From contig CAZKSS010000001.1 of the NCBI GenBank assembly GCA_964555545.1, positions 14,058 to 55,083 on the forward strand: a stretch of DNA of 41,026 nucleotides. The letters are read 5' to 3'. The notes under the pieces were generated by a model. The model did not search any database, was not told the DNA's origin, and saw only the letters and a list, made by a program, of their open reading frames with translations. Shown piece by piece: positions 16,816 through 39,200 of this stretch; positions within the stretch are counted from its first letter, which is position 1; every line of letters begins with the position of its first letter. The position numbers and the translations under genes were made by a program. Source of the stretch: an uncultured Planctomycetales bacterium (GTDB lineage: Bacteria; Omnitrophota; Gorgyraeia; Gygaellales; Profunditerraquicolaceae).

Positions 16816-17847
16816 CTACAAGATTTCGACTGATTTTTTGCCTCTCACTACTTCGCCGATAACCCAGGATTTAAGTTTGGACTTGGCTAATTTTGCGATA
16901 ATACTTTTTGCGGCGCTGGGCTCAACTATCAAAACCATACCGATGCCCATATTAAAGGTATGATACATTTCTCTATCGTCAATATTGCCTTTGTTCTGAA
17001 TGAGGCGGAAAATCTTGGGCACTGGCCAGGAACCTTTATAGATGCGCACCTTGACATTCTCAGGTAGGATACGCGCGATTTTATCGTAGAAAGCGCCGCC
17101 GGTGATATGAGAAATGCCGTGGATTGTCGTTGGTCGTTGCCTGCCTGCCGGCGAGGCAGGGTCGTTGGTCGTTGGTAATAAAGATAAAACCGGTTTGACG
17201 TAAATCCGTGTGGGCTTCAGCAATTCATCGCTCATCCGCTTTAATTCTTTCTGCGAGAAAACTTTTCTCACCAGAGCAAAGCCATTGGAATGTAGGCCGT
17301 TTGACTCCAGGCCAATTAGCGTGTCACCAACGGCGATTTTCGCACCGTCAATAATATTCCTGCGTTCCACCGCACCCACGCAAAAACCCGCCAGGTCATA
17401 TTCGCCATTTTTATACATCCCCGGCATCTGGGCGGTTTCTCCGCCGATTAAGGAACAGCCGGCCTCAATACAACCTGCGTTTATTCCTTTGACGATATCT
17501 AACAAGGTATCCTCGCTGAGTTTGGCGTAGGCAATATAATCCAGGAAGAATAAAGGCCTGGCACCGCTACACAAAATATCATTTACGTTCATGGCCACGG
17601 CATCAATGCCTACTCTATCGTGCTTTTGCGCTAAGGCGGCTATTTTTAATTTTGTGCCTACGCCGTCGGCAGAAGAGACCAAGACCGGGTCTTGAAATTT
17701 GTTCTGGAATCGGAAAAATGCGCCGAAGCCGCCGATATCTTTGAGAACTTCGGGAGAAAAAGATTTCCTGAGTAGTGTTTTTATCTTGGCCTTGAAGGCA
17801 CTTGCACTTTTAATATCCACTCCTGACTTTTTATAAGTTAATCTCAC
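16816..17847 (-). CDS. purM: Phosphoribosylformylglycinamidine cyclo-ligase (AIR synthetase)
   Basis: 343-aa ORF with PurM blocks (GGFGA, DGVGTK, HITGGAF). Carries a ~48-nt repeat/hairpin segment inside the reading frame. Confidence 0.95.
   Translation of the reverse strand: MRLTYKKSGVDIKSASAFKAKIKTLLRKSFSPEVLKDIGGFGAFFRFQNKFQDPVLVSSADGVGTKLKIAALAQKHDRVGIDAVAMNVNDILCSGARPLFFLDYIAYAKLSEDTLLDIVKGINAGCIEAGCSLIGGETAQMPGMYKNGEYDLAGFCVGAVERRNIIDGAKIAVGDTLIGLESNGLHSNGFALVRKVFSQKELKRMSDELLKPTRIYVKPVLSLLPTTNDPASPAGRQRPTTIHGISHITGGAFYDKIARILPENVKVRIYKGSWPVPKIFRLIQNKGNIDDREMYHTFNMGIGMVLIVEPSAAKSIIAKLAKSKLKSWVIGEVVRGKKSVEIL
17126..17174. repeat. Composite element within the purM reading frame: 2 heptamers, a 21-nt hairpin, then 2 heptamers
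   Basis: Reads GTCGTTG GTCGTTG, then CCTGCC-TGCCGGCGA-GGCAGG, then GTCGTTG GTCGTTG. It encodes PTTNDPASPAGRQRPTT just upstream of the conserved HITGG block. Confidence 0.85.
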
Positions 17848-19293
17848 CTAAATCGCTCCCTGTCCGCAACAATGCTCTTCCAGCGAAAATTTGCCCTGCT
17901 TCTTCTCCGGTTTCAAGGGGTAGCGACCAGTCCAGCAGGCAGTGCAATAATTGCTCTCGTGCTGCCCCAGGCATCCGAGCATCCCTTCCAGGCCTAAATA
18001 ACCGAGGCTATCCACATCCAGGAACTTTCTGATTTTATCTAAAGATGCGTATTTATTGGCGATTAATTCCCAGGCCCGATGAAAATCTATGCCGTAGAAA
18101 CAGGGAAAACGATGCGGCGGGCAGGAAATCCTTAAATGCACTTCCTTAACCCCGGCTCTCCTTAAATTGCGCACGCGGATTTTTGAAGTGGTGCCTCTTA
18201 CGATGGAGTCATCGACGATAACGATGCGTTTTCCTTTCAGAACATCGTGCAGCAAATTAAATTTTACCCTCACCCCCAGATCCCGCGCATCCTGCGCCGG
18301 CTGAATAAAGGTGCGGCCGACATAGTGGTTGCGGATAATGCCCATTTCTAAAGGTATGCCTGATTCTCGGGAATATCCTAAAGCCGCGGAAAATCCCGAA
18401 TCCGGCACCGGCACCACAAAATCCGCCTCTACCGGATGCTCTCTGGCTAACTGCTCCCCTAATTTAGAGCGCACCGTATGCACAGTCTCTCCAAAAACAA
18501 CAGAATCCGGACGGGAAAAATATACGTGCTCAAAGATACAAAATGCACGCCTGTGGTTGGCCTTCAGGCCCTGGGGACTAATGGACCTGACCGCACCGCT
18601 CCTCTTGATAAAAATAATTTCTCCCGGAGCAATCTCGCGGATGTATTTGGCTCCGATTAAATCAAAGGCACAGGTTTCGGAGGCCAGGCACCAGGTATTA
18701 GCGATTTTTCCCAGGACCAGCGGCCGAAAGCCCAGGGGGTCTCTGATGCCAATGAGGGTATCGTTATCCATCATCACTAAAGAATACGCGCCCTTGATTC
18801 TTTTTAAGGCATAGATGAGGCTATCTTCTAAATTCCTGGTCCTGCTCCTGGCCATGAGATGAATGATAATTTCGGAATCAGTGGTGGTCTGAAATATCGA
18901 GCCGGTCTTTTCCAGGTATTGGCGTAGTTCTAACGAATTGACTAAATTTCCGTTATGGGCAATACAGATTGTGCCTTTGGCAAAATCTATTAATAAGGGC
19001 TGGGCATTCTTTAAGACGCTGGAGCCGGTAGTGGAATAACGCACATGTCCGACGGCAATATCCCCTTTTAATTTATGGATAATCTCAGCGTTAAACACAT
19101 CATTCACTAGGCCGGTGTCTTTGTGTAGCGTCAAGATGCCTTTGTGATTAGCGACGATCCCGCAGGCCTCCTGGCCCCGGTGCTGCTGGGCATAAAGCCC
19201 CAGATACGTCAGCCAACTGGCGTGCCGGTTATTTATGATACCGAACAGACCGCAGTATTCTTTCGGCTCTTCGCTGAAATTTTTCTTTTGCAT
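17848..19293 (-). CDS. purF: Amidophosphoribosyltransferase
   Basis: Ntn nucleophile motif ..EYCGLFGI after a short propeptide, PRTase loop VDDSIVRGTT and C-terminal Fe-S cysteines (CTACWTG). The likely start is MQKK at 19293; the ORF track extends to 19338. Confidence 0.93.
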   Translation of the reverse strand: MQKKNFSEEPKEYCGLFGIINNRHASWLTYLGLYAQQHRGQEACGIVANHKGILTLHKDTGLVNDVFNAEIIHKLKGDIAVGHVRYSTTGSSVLKNAQPLLIDFAKGTICIAHNGNLVNSLELRQYLEKTGSIFQTTTDSEIIIHLMARSRTRNLEDSLIYALKRIKGAYSLVMMDNDTLIGIRDPLGFRPLVLGKIANTWCLASETCAFDLIGAKYIREIAPGEIIFIKRSGAVRSISPQGLKANHRRAFCIFEHVYFSRPDSVVFGETVHTVRSKLGEQLAREHPVEADFVVPVPDSGFSAALGYSRESGIPLEMGIIRNHYVGRTFIQPAQDARDLGVRVKFNLLHDVLKGKRIVIVDDSIVRGTTSKIRVRNLRRAGVKEVHLRISCPPHRFPCFYGIDFHRAWELIANKYASLDKIRKFLDVDSLGYLGLEGMLGCLGQHESNYCTACWTGRYPLKPEKKQGKFSLEEHCCGQGAI

Positions 19294-20702
19294 GGGCGCT
19301 CCTCTTGCGGTTCTCTCCCCTGCCAACAGTAGAGACAAAGACTTTCTCTGGGCAGGCCGATGGCTTCAACCATATCGTTTGATTTCTGATATTTTAAGGT
19401 GGTGACCCCCAAGTCTTTACGGATCCATTCTACCATCTTTTTATATTTTGGGGAATTTTCATCTAGGTATGCACTTACATCTTCTAAGTCTTCACCTTCC
19501 AGCGCCCGGATCGCCCTGCGCGCAGCCAACTCGTGGATACTCCTCGTGGAATAGTTAAACTTACAGGGAAACATCAAAGGCGGGCAAGCAATTCTTAAGT
19601 GGATTTCTTTTGCGCCGTTTTCCAGAAGTTTCTGGATAGTGTAATTTTTCAATTGCGTTCCCCGGACAATAGAATCATCGCAGAACACCATGCTTTTATT
19701 TTTAATTATCTCTGGTATGGGAATTAATTTCATCTTCGCAATCAAATCCCTCTCTTCCTGTGAAGGCGGCGTATAACTGCGGTCAAAGCCCGGAGTATAT
19801 TTGACTAGCGGCCTACGCAACGGTATCCCTGAACCCATGGCATAACCAATCGCATGCGCAGTACCCGAATCCGGAATCCCTGAAACCATATCTGCTTCTA
19901 TATTGTCTGCCTTGGCTAAAAAATTTCCGCTCTTTTCCCTGGCTATCTCTACATTTAATCCTTCATAACTGGAGGCGGGGAATCCCGTATAGATCCACAA
20001 AAACGCACAGATCTGGTTGCATCCCCCTCCTTTTATCTTAGACTGCAGGCCGACCTCGCTTAAAAGGATAATCTCGCCGGGCTGAATTTCTTTCCGGATC
20101 TTAAATCCTAAGTTATGAAAGGCTGAGGTTTCAGTGGTTACTGCCCAGTCTTTGTCCCTCTCCCCTATAATCAACGGCGAATAACCGTATCTATCCCGGG
20201 CGGCATAAAGGCCTTCTTTGGCCAAGAGAAGCAAAGAACAGGAGCCTTTAATCTGGGAAAACAGGTATTCAATCCCATTGACAATCGTGTCGCCGTCTAA
20301 TATAAGTTTTCCTACCAGTTCAGTCTGATTGACTTTTCCATCGGTCACCTCGCTGAAAGACCGGCCCTCTTTATACATTTGAGCGGCTAACTCCTCGGCA
20401 TTATCAATAAAACCGTTGGTGACGATAGCAAAAGGTCCAAACTTGGAATGAATGTATATCGGCTGCTCGTCAATTGCGCTGATTACACCTATCCCTTTAG
20501 ATGCGCCTTCCATCTTTTTATAATCTTCATAAAACTTTGCCTTGAACTGGCTGCCTCTAATATCGTGGATCCGGCGTATTATTTCGCCTTTCCAAACTGC
20601 TAGGCCGGCGAATCGTGTGCCCAGATGCGAATGATAATCTGTGCCGTAGAATAAATCCTCGTGGCAATTCTCTTTAGACACAATCCCGAAAATTCCGCTC
20701 AT
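19233..20702 (-). CDS. PurF-like amidophosphoribosyltransferase paralog with Ser replacing the nucleophile Cys
   Basis: 489-aa ORF preceded by GAGGAG-N6-ATG. The N-terminus is MSGIFGIV (AGC Ser where PurF has Cys). It retains the PRTase loop CDDSIVRGTQ and Fe-S-type cysteines (CPPLMFPC, CLYCWQG). Confidence 0.8.
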   Translation of the reverse strand: MSGIFGIVSKENCHEDLFYGTDYHSHLGTRFAGLAVWKGEIIRRIHDIRGSQFKAKFYEDYKKMEGASKGIGVISAIDEQPIYIHSKFGPFAIVTNGFIDNAEELAAQMYKEGRSFSEVTDGKVNQTELVGKLILDGDTIVNGIEYLFSQIKGSCSLLLLAKEGLYAARDRYGYSPLIIGERDKDWAVTTETSAFHNLGFKIRKEIQPGEIILLSEVGLQSKIKGGGCNQICAFLWIYTGFPASSYEGLNVEIAREKSGNFLAKADNIEADMVSGIPDSGTAHAIGYAMGSGIPLRRPLVKYTPGFDRSYTPPSQEERDLIAKMKLIPIPEIIKNKSMVFCDDSIVRGTQLKNYTIQKLLENGAKEIHLRIACPPLMFPCKFNYSTRSIHELAARRAIRALEGEDLEDVSAYLDENSPKYKKMVEWIRKDLGVTTLKYQKSNDMVEAIGLPRESLCLYCWQGREPQEERPCKRKISAKSRKNTAVCSVS

Positions 20703-20714
20703 TTTTAGCTCCTC

Positions 20715-21503
20715 TTAAAAACGTTTTCTAATATATTCGATGCCGTTTTGAAAAATTGCTAGACCGTCACCCTCTTTTTTCTTCAACCAACGCGGATGCT
20801 GTTCGGCAAAAATATGTCTTTCTGGATGCGGCATTAGTCCCAAAATCCTGCCGCTATCATCGCAGATTCCGGCGATATTATCCAGAGAGCCGTTAGGGTT
20901 ATGTGGATAGCCAGCAAGGCGGCCTTTTCTATCGCAATATTGAAAAACGATCTGGCCGTTTCTTCTCAATCTCTGCAAAATCTTCTTATCTCTAGTAACA
21001 AACTTGCCTTCTCCATGCGCCACGGGCAGATAGATAACTTCAGGCAAATGCCTAGCCCATATACATTTGGTCGTTGGTCGTTGGTCGTTGGTCGTTAGTA
21101 AATAAGTCCATCTGTCTTCAAACTTTGCCGAATCATTAAGCATCAGGCTGGCCTCCTGGCGCAAATCCCTATTACCCGGCAGGAGCCCGGCCTTGACCAA
21201 AACCTGAAAGCCGTTACAGATACCGATAATCAGTTTTCCTTTCCGGATGAACTGACGCAGGTCATCAATAAGTTTATACCTTAATTCATTGGCCAAGATT
21301 TTTCCCGCGCCCAGGTCATCTCCGTAAGTAAACCCCCCCGGGATAGCCAAGATCTGGTAATCCGCAAGGGCCTTGCGCTTAGTGACTAAACTATTTATAT
21401 GTACTAATTCGCTGAGCGCTCCTACTTTGTTAAAGGCAAAAGCAGTCTCTTGGTCGCAGTTGGTACCTGCGGTTCTTAAAACGCAGACTCTAGGTCTTAA
21501 CAT
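20715..21503 (-). CDS. purQ: FGAM synthase glutaminase subunit
   Basis: 262-aa ORF of a class I amidotransferase, with the nucleophile elbow GICNGFQ and the HGEG / MPHPER blocks. Contains (GGTCGTT)x4. Confidence 0.93.
   Translation of the reverse strand: MLRPRVCVLRTAGTNCDQETAFAFNKVGALSELVHINSLVTKRKALADYQILAIPGGFTYGDDLGAGKILANELRYKLIDDLRQFIRKGKLIIGICNGFQVLVKAGLLPGNRDLRQEASLMLNDSAKFEDRWTYLLTTNDQRPTTKCIWARHLPEVIYLPVAHGEGKFVTRDKKILQRLRRNGQIVFQYCDRKGRLAGYPHNPNGSLDNIAGICDDSGRILGLMPHPERHIFAEQHPRWLKKKEGDGLAIFQNGIEYIRKRF
21069..21096. repeat. Perfect heptanucleotide tandem repeat (GGTCGTT)x4 inside purQ
   Basis: Four exact units are read directly. On the coding strand (AACGACC)n is translated as TTNDQRPTT. 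Confidence 0.95.
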
Positions 21504-22158
21504 AAAATTTCTTAATTACACTGACTACCTCTTTGGGGCTATCTACTACCGTAAAAATATCCAGATCTTTCTTACTGATGCTACCGTGTCTTAAAAGGGT
21601 ATCATGGAACCAATCCAACATTCCCTTCCAGTATTCCTTTCCCAGAAGCACTACCGGGAATTTAAGAATCCTCTCGGTTTGAATGAGGTTGATGGCCTCG
21701 GTAAATTCATCTAAAGTGCCGTATCCGCCGGGCATAATCACAAAGGCCTTGGCGTATTTGACAAACATCACCTTACGCACAAAAAAGTAACGGAAATCCA
21801 AAAGCGTTTCTACGTATTTATTGGGTCGCTGTTCGTGCGGAATCTGGATATTTAGGCCGATAGAGTGGCCGCCAGCGCGGGCAGCACCTTTATTGGCCGC
21901 CTCCATAATTCCCGGTCCACTGCCGGTAATGATGGCGAATCCCTCTTTTGCCAAAAGATAAGCGGTGTTCTCTGCGAGTTTATAATACTTGCTTGTGGGT
22001 TTAAGGCGACTAGAGCCGAATATAGAAACTGCGTTACCCACTTCAGATAAGACTTCAAACCCGTCTACAAACTCCGACATAATCCGGAATATCCGCCAGG
22101 TGTCTTCCCTGGTGAAGTCATCTCTCACAATGACGTTGCCTCTTTTTACCCTTACCAT
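21490..22158 (-). CDS. LOG-family / TIGR00730 Rossmann protein (nucleotide 5'-monophosphate nucleosidase type)
   Basis: PGGYGTLDEF motif and GSGPGIMEAANKGA. The likely start is the ATG at 22158, which overlaps the purL stop (AGATGGTAA); the ORF track extends to 22263. Confidence 0.85.
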   Translation of the reverse strand: MVRVKRGNVIVRDDFTREDTWRIFRIMSEFVDGFEVLSEVGNAVSIFGSSRLKPTSKYYKLAENTAYLLAKEGFAIITGSGPGIMEAANKGAARAGGHSIGLNIQIPHEQRPNKYVETLLDFRYFFVRKVMFVKYAKAFVIMPGGYGTLDEFTEAINLIQTERILKFPVVLLGKEYWKGMLDWFHDTLLRHGSISKKDLDIFTVVDSPKEVVSVIKKFYVKT

Positions 22159-25109
22159 CTTAACGGCTCCTTCCATGTTTCTTTCATCTCTTGAATATCC
22201 GCTTTGATACAAATTTTCCCGTCTAAGCCATGAACCTGAAATTCTTTTTTTGCGCTGGTGCAACCGATTAAGCCAAAGGGAAGGCCCGCAAGTATTCTTT
22301 CAAACTTTTTCTGATTCTTTTTGGAGACTTCTACAATAAAACGGGAGTTAGATTCCGAAAATAAAATAAAGTCATTCCTTAAATTTTCTATTTTTGGTTT
22401 TTGATTTGTATTTTTGATTTTATATGGCACTTCTGACAAAAATAAATCCATGCCCCACCCGCCGGAAAAAACCATCTCTGCTGCGGCCACGCCGATGCCG
22501 CCGTCGGAACAGTCGTGCATGGCTTGCACCAGACCCGCGGAAGAAGCCCGGCTTAAGGCAGCAAAAATTTTTTTGGCTTGAGCAGGATAAACCCTGGGCA
22601 CATTATTACCGATAGCGCCGGACAAATCATAATAATGCGAGCCGCCTAATTCAGGATAAGTTTCCCCGACTACGTAAACCAAATCCCCCGGCTCTTTGGC
22701 AGACAGAGAAACTGCTTTACTGACCTCGTCCATCACGGCCAGGGCAGAAATCAGAAGCGTCCCAGGGATGCTTAAGGATTTTCCCTTAACCGTGTATTCG
22801 TTATTCAGACTGTCTTTACCGGAGATAAAGGGAATTCCAAAACCCTTGGCAATAGCATAACAACCCCGGGCCGCCCTGACTAAACTCCCCAACCTGTCAG
22901 GCTTATCCGGATTGCCCCAGCAGAAATTATCCAGAATCGCCACTTCTTTTAAAGAGCCACCCACGGCAATAATCTGGCGCAAGGCCTCGTCAATACAGGA
23001 GGCAGCCATCCAATAAGGGTCAATAAAACCGAACCTGAAATTAATCCCGTTGGCGACAACAATTCCTTTTTTTGAATTTAAAAGCGGCCTCACAATGCTG
23101 GCGTCGGACGGGCCGTCGTTAAGTAACCCCACCAAGGGTTTTAAAACCGAGCCTCCCTGCACCTCGTGGTCGTATTGGCGGATGACCCACTCTTTGGAAC
23201 AGGTATCATAATGCGCCAGCAATTTTAGTAAATATTTGGTCAGGTCCCTGGGGCATTTGAATTCCGGCTCTCTGTGTCTGGGTTGCATAAATACCGCTTT
23301 CTTCTCTATCTCCGGAATCCCCTCGTGCAGAAAGCGCATTGCCAGGTCGCAGACGAGATTATCCTGATAATAAAGCTGCAGCCTTTTCGTAGCGGTAAAT
23401 TCGCCGATTACGGTTGCCTCCACGTCCTCCTGATGAAAAACTTCTAATAAGGCATCTAAGTTTTCAGGCGCTACCGCAAGCACCATCCGCTCCTGCGACT
23501 CAGAAATCCAGATCTCGGTGTAAGACAGGCCTGCATATTTTAAAGGGACTTTCTCTAAATAAACCTTCGCCCCTAATTCCGCGGCCATTTCTCCTACTGC
23601 ACTGGATAACCCGCCGGCGCCGCAGTCAGTAATGGCATTATAGAGATTTTTATCGCGCGCCATAATAATCGCATCCAGCATCTTTTTTTCCTGAATAGGA
23701 TTGCCAACTTGCACTGCGCCGCTGGAGAGCGTCTCTGATTCGTGGGTCAATTCGCCCGAAGAAAATGTCGCGCCGTGAATTCCGTCCCTGCCGGTCCTGC
23801 CGCCGACCAGCACTATCAGATCGCCTGTCTTTGCCTGCTTAAAAGATTTTTCTTTAGGCATAATCCCGACTGTGCCGCAATAGACCAGCGGATTTCCTAC
23901 AAAGCCGTCGTGAAAAAGTATGGCTCCGTTTACGGTCGGAATACCCATTTTGTTACCATAGTCGCGCACGCCGGAGACCACGCCTTTCATAATCCGCTTG
24001 GGATGCAACGTCCCTGCCGGCAAGCGGCCAAAAGGATAATCCGGTGGCCCGAAACAAAAAACATCAGTATTCAGTATTGGTTTTGCGCCCAGGCCTGTTC
24101 CCAGGGGGTCACGGATTACTCCGCCCACGCCGGTATTCGCCCCGCCAAAAGGCTCTAAGGCCGAAGGATGATTATGGGTCTCCACCTTAAAACAAATATT
24201 GTATTTATCGTCAAAGCGGATTACCCCGGAATTATCCTTGAACACCGAAACACACCAGGGCTTATTTAACTCTTTGGTCACCTTCATAATGGTAGATTTA
24301 AGTAAATTATCAATCCTTCTTTTCTGTACCCTGTACCCTCTATCCTCTACCCTGACCTTCTCGCGATATTTTATCTTTCCTCTGAATGTCTTATGCCAGC
24401 AATGTTCTGACCAGGTCTGGGCAATGGTCTCTAATTCGCAGTCACTAGGATTGCGTTTTATTTTTTTAAAATAATCCTTGATCCGGCGCATCTCCGCCAA
24501 ATTCAGGAATAACTGGCCTTGTTTACTGATATCCAATAATTTTCTATCCGAAGCATTTGATAAATCAACGGTAATGAGTCCGAAAACTAAAGATCCGCCC
24601 GCTATTAAAGACCCGGTCTTACAGGTCACTTTATCTTCTTGCAAGACCGGGTCTTTAATAATATGCTGGATTAATTTATTATAAAGCAATTTCTCGGAGA
24701 TGGTCTTTAACTGCCGAGGGGAAAGTCTGCCTTGGATAATATATTTCTTTGCGGTCTTAAAGGAAGTAACGCTATCTATGCCTAAGTCTTTTATGCCTTT
24801 TAAGGCCGATTCTTCCACCGGATCCATTACGCCCGGGTTGTAGGCGGCTTCAACTATAAATTCGTCCCTCGTCCCTCGTCCCTCGTCCTTCGTATTAATA
24901 GCGTAATTCTGGGAAATCTTATCGGTAAGTAATTCCTGGCAAATCCTCTCAATCTCACTTTCAGAAACCTCGCCTTCAATGGTATAGACCTGTGCGTACT
25001 CAACTCGGCGGACAGAATTCACCCCTAAGTCCAGGATATCTTTCTTGATGCCCGCGCCCACCGCATCAAAAACTCCGGGCCTGTCTTTTACCTCAATCCG
25101 ATAAAACAT
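22152..25109 (-). CDS. purL: FGAM synthase II with two N-terminal PurS-like modules (PurS-PurS-PurL fusion)
   Basis: 985-aa ORF. Residues ~1-75 and ~85-150 each resemble PurS (V.DPxG-like, LG..V, LL...I..Y). The PurL core begins near WSEHCWHKTF. Three heptamer-repeat segments lie inside. Confidence 0.93.
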   Translation of the reverse strand: MFYRIEVKDRPGVFDAVGAGIKKDILDLGVNSVRRVEYAQVYTIEGEVSESEIERICQELLTDKISQNYAINTKDEGRGTRDEFIVEAAYNPGVMDPVEESALKGIKDLGIDSVTSFKTAKKYIIQGRLSPRQLKTISEKLLYNKLIQHIIKDPVLQEDKVTCKTGSLIAGGSLVFGLITVDLSNASDRKLLDISKQGQLFLNLAEMRRIKDYFKKIKRNPSDCELETIAQTWSEHCWHKTFRGKIKYREKVRVEDRGYRVQKRRIDNLLKSTIMKVTKELNKPWCVSVFKDNSGVIRFDDKYNICFKVETHNHPSALEPFGGANTGVGGVIRDPLGTGLGAKPILNTDVFCFGPPDYPFGRLPAGTLHPKRIMKGVVSGVRDYGNKMGIPTVNGAILFHDGFVGNPLVYCGTVGIMPKEKSFKQAKTGDLIVLVGGRTGRDGIHGATFSSGELTHESETLSSGAVQVGNPIQEKKMLDAIIMARDKNLYNAITDCGAGGLSSAVGEMAAELGAKVYLEKVPLKYAGLSYTEIWISESQERMVLAVAPENLDALLEVFHQEDVEATVIGEFTATKRLQLYYQDNLVCDLAMRFLHEGIPEIEKKAVFMQPRHREPEFKCPRDLTKYLLKLLAHYDTCSKEWVIRQYDHEVQGGSVLKPLVGLLNDGPSDASIVRPLLNSKKGIVVANGINFRFGFIDPYWMAASCIDEALRQIIAVGGSLKEVAILDNFCWGNPDKPDRLGSLVRAARGCYAIAKGFGIPFISGKDSLNNEYTVKGKSLSIPGTLLISALAVMDEVSKAVSLSAKEPGDLVYVVGETYPELGGSHYYDLSGAIGNNVPRVYPAQAKKIFAALSRASSAGLVQAMHDCSDGGIGVAAAEMVFSGGWGMDLFLSEVPYKIKNTNQKPKIENLRNDFILFSESNSRFIVEVSKKNQKKFERILAGLPFGLIGCTSAKKEFQVHGLDGKICIKADIQEMKETWKEPLRW
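22391..22424. repeat. Imperfect heptamer-like tandem repeat (TTTTTGR) inside the purL 3' region
   Basis: Reads TTTTTGG TTTTTGA TTTGTA TTTTTGA TTTTATA. It encodes KNTNQKPKIEN. Confidence 0.55.
24324..24358. repeat. Heptanucleotide tandem repeat (CTGTACC family, 5 units) inside purL
   Basis: Reads CTGTACC CTGTACC CTCTATC CTCTACC CTGACCT. It encodes VRVEDRGYRVQ. Confidence 0.85.
24863..24893. repeat. Heptanucleotide tandem repeat (CGTCCCT)x3 plus a degenerate unit inside purL
   Basis: Reads CGTCCCT CGTCCCT CGTCCCT CGTCCTT CGT. It encodes KDEGRGTRDE, located between the two PurS-like modules. Confidence 0.92.
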
Positions 25110-37913: not shown

Positions 37914-39200
37914 TCATCTTGCCACCTCTAATTTTGCCCTTTTTATGGACTGCACTAACCTGCGTTTTGCCGGACAGACATAGTTGCAGAGCCCGCATTC
38001 AATACAATCGGCTGCGCCGTAGCCTGCGGCCTGCTGCCATAATTCCTTCTCCGCAGCCAAGTTTATCAGGCAGGGCATCAGGCTCACCGGGCATTCCCTG
38101 ACGCAGGCGCCGCAACGGATACAGAATTCCTCTTCCAGCATCCTGGCTTCTTTTTTATTGAACAATACTACCCCGGTCGTAGACTTGATTACCGGGACCT
38201 CTTCTGTAAATTGGGCAATGCCCATCATCGGCCCCCCGATAATAATTTTAGCCGGATCTTCCTTTAGACCGCAGAAATCCATTAATTCCTTTATGGGCGT
38301 ACCAAGACGCACTAAAATATTCTTGGGATTATTTAGGCAACTACCCGTTACCGTCACTACGCGTTCATATAAAGGTTTATTTTTATAAACGGCTTCGTAA
38401 ATAGCATATAGCGTGGATACATTCTGCACCACCACGCCGATGTCAAAGGGAAGTTTCCCCTGCGGAACTTCCTTGCCTAAAATATTCTTTATCAGCTGTT
38501 TTTCTCCTCCCTGCGGATAAGCGCTTTTTAAAACCCAAACGCTGAACGCTGAACGCTGAACGCTGAATTTCTCTATGGCTTCGGGCTTATTATCTTCGAT
38601 AGCGATAAATACATTCTTCGCCCCTAAACACCTAACCGCCAATTCCATCCCTTGGCAGATCTCCTCTGTTCTTTCTACCATCAGCCGCGCGTCGCCGGTC
38701 AAAAAGGGTTCGCACTCCGCGCCATTGACAATCAAAGTATCTACTGGCTGAGGGGGATTAAGTTTGATGTGGGTAGGAAAACTCGCCCCGCCCAGGCCGA
38801 CAATCCCTGCCTCAAAGACGAGATTGCGGATCTGTTCAGCATCTAACTTGTCTATCTCCGGCTGAACCCTGAACCCTGAACCCTGAACCCTGTCCTGCCC
38901 GTCATTCTCAATTATTATTGTCTTACAGCGGCCGAGGACAGGATGCGGCCATTCCTGGATAGCGCAAACCCTGCCTGAAACCGACGAGTGGATGGGGGCA
39001 GAGACATGCGCCTCAATAGCGGCAATTTTTTGGCCGAGAAACACGGTGTCTCCTACTTTCACCAGCGGTTGACAGACCTTGCCCACGTGCTGGCTTAAAG
39101 GAATGTATACGCGCGCCGGCAAAGGCGCTCTTTCTATGGCTTTGTCTTGTGTATCTTGTTTATGTTCTTCTAATTCAACCATGGAATCTTTCTCTGCCAA
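37914..39200 (-). CDS. rnfC: Rnf complex subunit C
   Basis: 428-aa ORF with GLGGASFPT, YPQGGEKQLI and two C-terminal CxxCxxCxxxCP motifs. An alternative start lies at 39182. Contains two perfect heptamer arrays. Confidence 0.92.
   Translation of the reverse strand: MAEKDSMVELEEHKQDTQDKAIERAPLPARVYIPLSQHVGKVCQPLVKVGDTVFLGQKIAAIEAHVSAPIHSSVSGRVCAIQEWPHPVLGRCKTIIIENDGQDRVQGSGFRVQPEIDKLDAEQIRNLVFEAGIVGLGGASFPTHIKLNPPQPVDTLIVNGAECEPFLTGDARLMVERTEEICQGMELAVRCLGAKNVFIAIEDNKPEAIEKFSVQRSAFSVWVLKSAYPQGGEKQLIKNILGKEVPQGKLPFDIGVVVQNVSTLYAIYEAVYKNKPLYERVVTVTGSCLNNPKNILVRLGTPIKELMDFCGLKEDPAKIIIGGPMMGIAQFTEEVPVIKSTTGVVLFNKKEARMLEEEFCIRCGACVRECPVSLMPCLINLAAEKELWQQAAGYGAADCIECGLCNYVCPAKRRLVQSIKRAKLEVAR
38540..38567. 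repeat. Perfect heptanucleotide tandem repeat (CGCTGAA)x4 inside rnfC
   Basis: Four exact units are read directly. On the coding strand (TTCAGCG)n is translated as FSVQRSAFSV. Confidence 0.95.
38862..38896. repeat. Perfect heptanucleotide tandem repeat (CTGAACC)x4 plus a degenerate unit inside rnfC
   Basis: Four exact units followed by CTGTCCT. The coding strand is translated as QDRVQGSGFRVQP. Confidence 0.95.

Follow-up and report, generated by a model that had tools for sequence, protein, structure and literature searches.

We analyzed a stretch of 41,026 nucleotides (nt), here called the window, from an uncultured Planctomycetales bacterium that GTDB places in Omnitrophota (GCA_964555545.1, contig CAZKSS010000001.1, positions 14,058 to 55,083 of the forward strand). 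It carries a one-strand pur cluster (purB, purS-purL, LOG, purQ, two purF-like genes, purM and purD), whose gene order is conserved in three other loci (L001, L003 and L004; loci and proteins used for comparison are cited by L and P numbers). Our subject is a perfect heptanucleotide array inside purQ, the gene for the glutaminase subunit of phosphoribosylformylglycinamidine (FGAM) synthase, together with the similar arrays found in other genes of the window and at the same sites in other Omnitrophota. In window coordinates, the gene and its array are as follows (lengths of proteins in amino acids, aa).

20715 to 21503, minus strand: purQ, FGAM synthase glutaminase subunit, 262 aa, intact, recognized by Pfam, a PDB match and its catalytic residues
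21067 to 21096, minus strand: focal array, CT(AACGACC)4AA on the coding strand, perfect, 4.3 copies, encoding LTTNDQRPTTK

Direct reading and Tandem Repeats Finder agree on a 30-nt perfect period-7 run at 21067-21096, read as TTGGTCG on the forward strand (4.3 copies, 100% matches, score 60) and translated as residues 136-146 of PurQ, L-TTNDQRPTT-K. A first-pass annotation made from the letters alone had described four GGTCGTT units at 21069-21096, which are exact and lie within this run; its peptide TTNDQRPTT, its stop-free unit and its frame arithmetic were all correct on re-reading, and the recurrences it had seen, of the same unit in purM and of a degenerate form in purD, were both confirmed. 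None of the six frames of the AACGACC unit contains a stop codon (NDQRPTT and GRWSLVV). Gain or loss of one or two units brings in stop codons at aa 146-184, ahead of the catalytic His226 and Glu228, and a change of three units preserves the frame. As a tandem run of a 5-11-nt unit longer than expected by chance, the array is a heptanucleotide long simple-sequence repeat. The folding of its RNA is weaker than in shuffles (z=+1.5), and no Rfam family matches it, a lone mir-999 match under the gathering score being due to chance. The period-7 observation in purQ is real.

The assignment of the gene to purQ, also proposed in the first pass, is borne out by a full-length match to the Pfam family GATase_5 (PF13507, E=3.3e-82, residues 3-258 on profile positions 1-260 of 260) and by the match to Thermotoga maritima PurQ (3d54_D, E=1.6e-32). 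The protein also matches the glutaminase domain of Salmonella PurL. Its catalytic triad, C96 (in GICNGFQ), H226 and E228 (in MPHPER), is invariant in 119 sequences. The closest homologues of PurQ and of RnfC, another protein of the window treated below, are 63-78% identical, and every named source is Candidatus Omnitrophica or Omnitrophota.

In alignments of 33 and 119 PurQs, F128, E129, R131, W132 and L135 before the array and C147 and W149 after it are invariant, and the stretch between them varies in length and sequence. An AlphaFold2 model built on the 119-sequence alignment (mean predicted local distance difference test score, pLDDT, 85.9; predicted template modelling score 0.89) replaced one on 33 sequences, which was unusable (pLDDT 57, C-terminal half below 50). 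In the better model residues 137-145 follow a strand (130-136), have no regular secondary structure and show somewhat lower confidence. In the sequence alignment with T. maritima PurQ, the array segment falls on the hairpin region LIVENNDTPFTNAF. The alignment and structure mapping proposed in the first pass place the segment as an insertion in a variable surface loop, predicted by the model to lie after a beta-strand and before the strand leading to the catalytic His and Glu. A second variable site is found close to the PurQ C-terminus (alignment columns 255-290, after HPRW, near 20740-20800), where P0046, P0071, P0098 and P0102 have non-periodic inserts of 10-30 aa.

The length of the loop is quantised. 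Among 112 PurQ orthologues, all predicted intact proteins and so a sample biased toward in-frame forms, 20 have a loop of 5-7 aa, 88 have one of 11-14 aa, a shift of +7 aa, and 4 reach 22-24 aa with nested inserts. The array of the window likewise adds 7 aa (three units, 21 nt) relative to array-less orthologues. Most long loops are periodic at 7 aa and differ in sequence, as in KNQKSKIKNQK, KSPQSTVHSPQ, RRAQSAERRAQNK and KTQNLKLKTQK. At the DNA level, a distinct array occupies the same PurQ codons in each of the loci listed here.

Window and L003: (AACGACC)4.3, perfect
L005, the closest relative (78% aa identity): (CGCACGG)4.4
L011: (AAAATCC)4.7
L258: (AAAAATC)4
L007: (GAACTCAC)3.6, an octamer array (2435-2463)
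L259: (AAAGTGTC)4, an octamer array
L060: seven units, decayed

Octamer arrays of about four units are found at comparable sites in five loci (L007 2435-2463, the L259 PurQ loop, L003 7060-7093, L060 3684-3718 and L256 4686-4718). Since these arrays also have about four units, what counts appears to be the addition of three units and not a length of 7 nt.

These arrays appear to be replaced as wholes. Outside the loop, three PurQs (P0007, P0014 and P0008) share 91-94% identity, and they carry (AAAAATC)4, (AAAGTGTC)4 and (CGCAWAT)4-5. Two or three base changes, and even an altered unit length, recur identically in every copy of an array, whereas about 60 nt upstream of the loop differ at one or two positions only and the downstream flank is also highly similar. 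On the other hand, the PurQs of the window and of L003 are only 70% identical outside the loop, yet they have the identical perfect array with zero synonymous differences. L001 and L002 contain a decayed copy of the array of the window at the same codons, and the three changes in L001 are all synonymous. The first pass had held that an equivalent peptide lacking nucleotide periodicity in unrelated lineages would speak against its observation; the only such peptide is that of L001, a decaying copy of the same array and not an independent peptide. In a neighbor-joining tree, of a single protein and weakly resolved, short-loop PurQs are interspersed with long-loop ones. From the identity of units within arrays and the replacement between lineages, the arrays behave as homogenised or rewritten units, not as ordinary codons.

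PurQ is not the only gene concerned. About nine arrays were found in the window: three in purSL, two in rnfC and the others in purD, purM and purQ. Each keeps the frame, and the copy number is about four in nearly every one. Seven perfect runs of at least 16 nt have period 7, and none has periods 2-5 or 8-13. When 15 or more of 21 period-7 matches were required over 28 nt, 9 such segments were obtained vs 0.1 in codon-block shuffles. Three of the arrays (purQ, purM and purD) are built on AACGACC. In addition to the focal array, the following were recorded.

14985 to 15012, minus strand: purD, degenerate four-unit array AACGACC ACAGACC TTCGACT AACGACT, peptide LLTTTDLRLTTK
17161 to 17176, minus strand: purM, AACGACC units 1 and 2 in coding sense, peptide LLPTTND
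17125 to 17139, minus strand: purM, last two AACGACC units in coding sense, the final one short of a base
22390 to 22421, minus strand: purSL, C-terminal degenerate array, CAAAAAT-like, 4.7 copies
24324 to 24354, minus strand: purSL, degenerate array lying between linker and first AIRS domain, CAGGGTA-like, 4.4 copies
24862 to 24893, minus strand: purS-purL fusion, (GGGACGA) in 4.6 copies at the PurS/linker junction, peptide TKDEGRGTRDE, with other units in orthologues
38538 to 38567, minus strand: rnfC site 2, (TTCAGCG) in 4.3 copies, perfect, peptide FSVQRSAFSV
38862 to 38892, minus strand: rnfC site 1, (CAGGGTT) in 4.4 copies, perfect, peptide DRVQGSGFRVQ

The same sites are used by the relatives. 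PurS-PurL of the window, L001, L003 and L004 has arrays at three common positions with differing units, and the L004 PurL peptide TNDQRPTTN is the AACGACC unit again. PurM orthologues have different arrays at the purM site of the window, and the L001 PurD orthologue is exactly 7 aa shorter at the site of the purD array. In RnfC, both array sites are occupied in almost all of 120 orthologues, with segments of 23-24 aa at site 1 and mostly 24-26 aa at site 2; the peptides are periodic at 7 aa with related units, e.g. F.V[QH].S.F.VKV and xYELRxTxYELR.

Counting arrays in coding and non-coding DNA, as the first pass had proposed, was carried out on 220 kb of Omnitrophota-like DNA, 93% of it coding by an open reading frame (ORF) proxy. 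There, 23 of 24 arrays of period 7 or 8 lie inside genes, so they are not depleted from coding DNA. Copy numbers range from 3.6 to 5.0, the single intergenic array having 7.7. Perfect arrays of at least three copies number 10 for period 7 and 3 for period 8, with none for periods 5, 6 and 9-12. The sole clearly intergenic array is located between purD and purE of L001 (17300-17402); it is decayed, with period 7/14 and about 7.7 copies. The PurQ cassette belongs to a pattern that extends over the genome and the phylum, in loops and linkers of housekeeping proteins, a point that had escaped the first pass.

The purM array as a whole (17125-17176) consists of two AACGACC units, a 21-nt insert and two more AACGACC units. 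The insert is listed here.

17140 to 17160, minus strand: 21-nt palindromic mini-element inside the purM array, after unit 2 and before unit 3, CCTGCCTCGCCGGCAGGCAGG on the coding strand, in frame, peptide PASPAGR, boundary ambiguous by 1 nt

Its consensus, CCTGCCT-NNCCGGC-AGGCAGG, folds as a hairpin and adds 7 aa in frame. The 21-mer CCTGCCTNNCCGGCAGGCAGG occurs with 0-3 differences in purM of the window, twice in L060 (1163-1193 and 1745-1765, in purL) and once each in L255 (3812-3832), L256 (5032-5052) and L257 (10627-10647). The copies in L255, L256 and L257 are at RnfC site 2, which lacks the mini-element in most other RnfC orthologues. In all six clear cases the mini-element is placed after the second array unit, although the flanking units all differ (AACGACC in purM of the window, CAAACCG and GAGACAAC in L060, AAAATTC in L255, a GAGCTA type in L256 and AATTACC in L257), and in L060 one copy is nested within another. 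Reading of the mini-element in different phases explains the recurrent peptides AGRQ, GRQAG and PCRQAG nested in loops of orthologues. A different insert was found in PurQ of L004 (7422-8246, P0116), where the AACGACC array is divided 2+2 by the 36-nt sequence AGGAGCGGAGCGAAGCGGAGCCTCCCCGAAGGGG, unlike the mini-element and containing a TCCCC-GAA-GGGGA hairpin. Comparable nested inserts of 10-12 aa are present in the PurQs P0054, P0102 and P0117.

The small dispersed repeats (SDR) of Nostoc, described by Elhai and colleagues in 2008, are reportedly mobile modules of 21-27 nt that sit at precise positions in repeats. The mini-element is SDR-like in size and copies (about 21-27 nt, near-identical dispersed copies), in its precise position in a repeated target and in being tolerated inside genes. 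They differ in sequence and phylum, the mobility of the mini-element is putative, and it is placed at the junction that follows the second unit of a heptamer array, not in the highly iterated palindrome HIP1, inside which SDR5 is stated to insert precisely in Nostoc (Elhai 2008, as cited in PMC4390886).

AACGACC arrays are not restricted to Omnitrophota. The sequence (AACGACC)3 was found in at least 120 stretches of species-representative genomes from many phyla, against an estimated chance expectation of about 0.3 occurrences for one specific 21-mer in these genomes. About half of the matches listed are from Acidobacteriota; the other hosts among them are Bacteroidota, Chloroflexota, Planctomycetota, Verrucomicrobiota, Gemmatimonadota, Cyanobacteria, Gammaproteobacteria and one candidate-phyla-radiation genome. 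Arrays of about four AACGACC units are in frame in class II ribonucleotide reductase, MnmG, DnaX (of a cultured Pedobacter), PurS-PurL, DPP-IV and a U32 peptidase (L155, L103, L143, L139, L127 and L117; hosts Acidobacteriota, Bacteroidota and others). The loci with AACGACC contain 51 other heptamer arrays vs 2-11 per period for periods 5, 6, 8 and 9, and the genomes that carry AACGACC arrays are simply heptamer-rich. We had considered AACGACC as a specially favored unit and dropped the idea, since viral contigs gave 6 matches vs 12 and 31 for control heptamers of the same composition. Run lengths cluster at about 27-30 nt inside and outside ORFs, in a small sample with 14 clearly non-coding cases among 120 loci; comparing coding with non-coding copy numbers over these 120 loci is non-discriminating, since spurious ORFs are frequent in GC-rich DNA. 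No nested element of the Omnitrophota type was found in the AACGACC arrays of other phyla. In the cyanobacterium Laspinema olomoucense (L153, 1700-1830), a long array mixes AATGACC and AATGACT with runs of AACGACC; AATGACC is the reverse complement of TTGGTCA.

TTGGTCA is a variant of one unit of the short tandemly repeated repetitive (STRR) elements of heterocystous cyanobacteria, whose units, described by Mazel and colleagues in 1990, are reportedly CCCCA(A/G)T, TT(G/T)GTCA and CAACAGT. The first pass had drawn an analogy between these and the purQ array. The part of it that stands is the tandem repetition of a heptamer, the presence of one unit at several loci of a single genome and a near-identical unit, TTGGTCG agreeing with TTGGTCA at 6 of 7 positions; the Laspinema array, with its interleaved AACGACC and AATGACC, may by analogy link the two. 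The part that does not stand concerns the host (Omnitrophota, not a heterocystous cyanobacterium), the genic location and the exact unit, which is not a listed consensus. The arrays described here have about four units, lie in 23 of 24 cases inside protein-coding genes, in frame at orthologous loops, and use many unrelated units per genome. Membership of the purQ array in the STRR family is not established, as it fails on host, location and exact unit. STRRs can themselves lie inside a gene, that of RNase P RNA, as indicated by the title of Vioque (1997).

Other known repeats share some of these features. Long simple-sequence repeats (Mrazek 2007) have likewise a dominant period 7 and occur in many phyla. 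According to the account of that work in PMC4679880, heptanucleotide repeats are their most abundant class in many bacteria and are attributed to polymerase slippage, about 7 nt being proposed as the polymerase contact length; by analogy, the period 7 found here appears to fit this dominance. The same account states that non-triplet units are disfavored in coding regions, whereas coding DNA shows no depletion of the present arrays, whose size is quantised at three extra units. A preference for four units is known from the heptamer repeats GGGAATC/GGGGAYT of Xanthomonas and Nostoc (Rehm et al. 2015, PMC4692102), of which 7-11% are intragenic in Xanthomonas and 68% intergenic in Nostoc. These form G-quadruplexes and are mostly intergenic, close to ORF ends, in contrast with AACGACC, which is unstructured and for which no G-quadruplex is possible. 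The TAACTGA direct repeats of Beggiatoaceae, Cyanobacteria and Bacteroidetes (MacGregor 2015, PMC4679880) are also a heptamer family common to distant phyla and constrained in location by coding potential, but they carry stops and are found upstream of start codons, whereas AACGACC is stop-free in six frames and inside ORFs. In the literature searched, we found neither a paper that deals with repeats of Omnitrophota nor one in which these array sequences appear, and no description of in-frame four-unit arrays at orthologous loops across a phylum, of array-level replacement or of a nested 21-mer; heptamers are not treated by Lin & Kussell (2012).

We suggest that the purQ array is probably a non-triplet simple-sequence repeat of the STRR-like heptanucleotide class, tolerated in a permissive loop and subject to turnover at the level of the whole array. 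Arrays would contract to one unit and then re-expand by three units in a 7- or 8-nt register, or an equivalent concerted replacement could occur via slippage or template switching. Selection would eliminate unit changes that are not multiples of three and units containing stops, and this filtering would be the reason for the open ORF and for the copy number of about four. The repeat could be tolerated in the loop because only three-unit changes preserve the frame. Its peptide would be tolerated as a passenger and would not serve as a functional motif, nor would the array be an on/off switch for purQ. A contracted state can be pictured at this locus, where the single-copy form would read Y-L-L-T-T-K-C, with the 5-aa loop LLTTK, which resembles the loops LKIQK, LKNHK and LRLKK of array-less orthologues.

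Several points weigh against this interpretation. Classical slippage from one copy to four in one step is difficult, as a single copy cannot misalign with itself, and the intermediates with one or two additional units are frameshifts, which leaves the mechanism of origin unexplained. Polyploidy sheltering the out-of-frame intermediates, or a process adding three units at once, would be speculative ways out. In addition, the mode of about four units is also seen outside ORFs (a small sample) and in intergenic repeats of other bacteria, so it may stem from the mechanism and not from selection on the frame. The units also recur in different genes: AACGACC in purQ, purM and purD of the window and in purQ and purL of L004, (T)AGTTCA three times in L001, and, in different lineages, the peptides KSQIPNPKSQ and SPQSTVHSPQ at PurQ as well as RnfC sites. 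This recurrence is hard to derive from amplification of unrelated native sequence, and for that reason pure local amplification of a native heptamer was only partly kept as the whole story. The retention of the L001 peptide through three synonymous changes hints, from sequence comparison, at some constraint at the protein level. Finally, the fixed position of the mini-element after unit 2 suggests dedicated machinery recognizing or producing arrays.

The main rival takes up this last point and regards the arrays as docking sites or footprints of an ultra-small mobile element, the CCTGCCT-N7-AGGCAGG palindrome or its enzyme, the empty purQ array being the unoccupied or post-excision state of a site of the purM type. 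It would account for the placement after unit 2 in six of six clear cases among flanking units that all differ, for the coincidence of the 21-nt element with the increment of three units, for the 2+2 split of the L004 purQ array by a different 36-nt insert, for the sharing of one unit by several genes of one genome and for a four-unit preference that may be independent of coding context. Mobile modules of 21-27 nt in Nostoc repeats offer a precedent (Elhai 2008, as cited in PMC4390886). Only about seven copies were seen, spread over five contigs; the majority of arrays are empty, the mini-element has no linked transposase, and the AACGACC arrays of other phyla contain no such nested element. 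We know of no plausible reaction that would make 2+2 direct repeats from a single target. Targeting of pre-existing arrays accounts for the same data, and we consider this rival rather unlikely.

A more far-reaching version, similarly doubtful, is that an active machinery in Omnitrophota, and perhaps in other heptamer-rich phyla including cyanobacteria, writes or rewrites four-unit cassettes of 7-8 nt at fixed positions, in connection with docking of the mini-element after unit 2. Each event would add 21 or 24 nt and be in frame by construction. If this were true, cassettes would colonise loops of essential proteins with a sequence that is continually replaced, a new class of ultra-small mobile or templated element would be at hand, and there would be a general explanation for STRR-type heptamer repeats and their preference for four units.

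Selection on the protein for a longer hydrophilic PurQ loop, e.g. in PurQ-PurL-PurS assembly, with the repeat as merely its route of origin, appears improbable. The long form is indeed present in 80% of PurQ orthologues, L001 retains TTNDQRPTT despite its three nucleotide changes, and nearly all orthologues have arrays at both RnfC sites, where patterns such as F.V[QH].S.F.VKV are partly conserved. However, the peptides at the PurQ site are unrelated between close relatives, the 20 orthologues that do without the extension are scattered in the tree, the perfect nucleotide identity of the copies is not demanded by protein selection, and the same pattern is seen in many unrelated proteins.

Haemophilus and Neisseria have contingency loci in which non-triplet repeats inside ORFs cause phase variation, and slippage by one or two units could in the same way turn purQ off and on. 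As in those loci, the tract is inside an ORF, its unit length is not a multiple of three, and one unit more or less shifts the frame, leading here to early stop codons; Omnitrophota may scavenge purines, which also counts for this idea. But the tract has only four units, located mid-gene at aa 136-146 of 262 in a housekeeping enzyme of purine biosynthesis, and the same layout is found in many core genes, with similar arrays in purD, purM, purL and rnfC. The purQ array fails the profile of a contingency locus on tract length, gene class and position. The instability by frame switching implied in the first pass is unsupported, given that 112 of 112 orthologues, in a sample biased to intact proteins, are in frame with an insert quantised at +7 aa, and that no length series was seen among relatives. 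We regard phase variation of purQ as very improbable.

Less credible still is a cis-acting nucleic-acid element, in which the heptamers would be DNA or mRNA sites bound by one protein per unit, e.g. a cold-shock-domain protein, and regulate translation or replication. The conserved positions, with lineage-specific units partly common within a genome, look like co-evolution with a trans factor, CspB binds heptamer repeats with one protein per unit (PMC4679880), and a cold-shock-domain gene is located near the rnf operon in relatives. Against it stand at least six unrelated units in this one window, the lack of structure in the array and the lack of any positional relation to start codons. An artefact of assembly or sequencing is hardly conceivable, since short repeats can be mis-assembled but the identical array is present in the independent assembly L003, a decayed copy is found at the same codons in L001 and L002, the frame is preserved, and 30 nt is far below the length of a sequencing read.

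The usual expectation for non-triplet repeats is purging from essential coding sequence or a role as switches, and neither appears to apply here. Across the phylum, arrays at fixed loops of PurQ, PurL, PurM, PurD and RnfC stay in frame and appear to be replaced whole faster than the neighboring codons diverge. They offer a natural system for the question of how 7-nt repeats arise, open since STRRs and long simple-sequence repeats were described, and possibly a link between heptamer arrays and tiny palindromic mobile modules, so far seen only in cyanobacteria. For annotation and phylogenetics of uncultured lineages there is a warning, as these loop segments lack residue-by-residue homology and give rise to spurious low-complexity matches between unrelated proteins, e.g. 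TTNDQRPTT in PurQ, PurM, PurL, ribonucleotide reductase, MnmG and DnaX. The focal array alone is a moderate curiosity; the phylum-wide pattern and the mini-element merit a dedicated genome-wide study.

Two neighbors of purQ were also recorded. Between purSL and purQ, and overlapping both ORFs, lies a LOG or "lysine decarboxylase-like" (SLOG) gene (21490-22263), a placement conserved in L001, L003, L004 and L260. On the other side of purQ are the tandem purF-like genes for class-II amidotransferases (17848-19338 and 19233-20702), whose mechanically called ORFs overlap by about 100 nt; the second of them has no match to a phosphoribosyltransferase domain.

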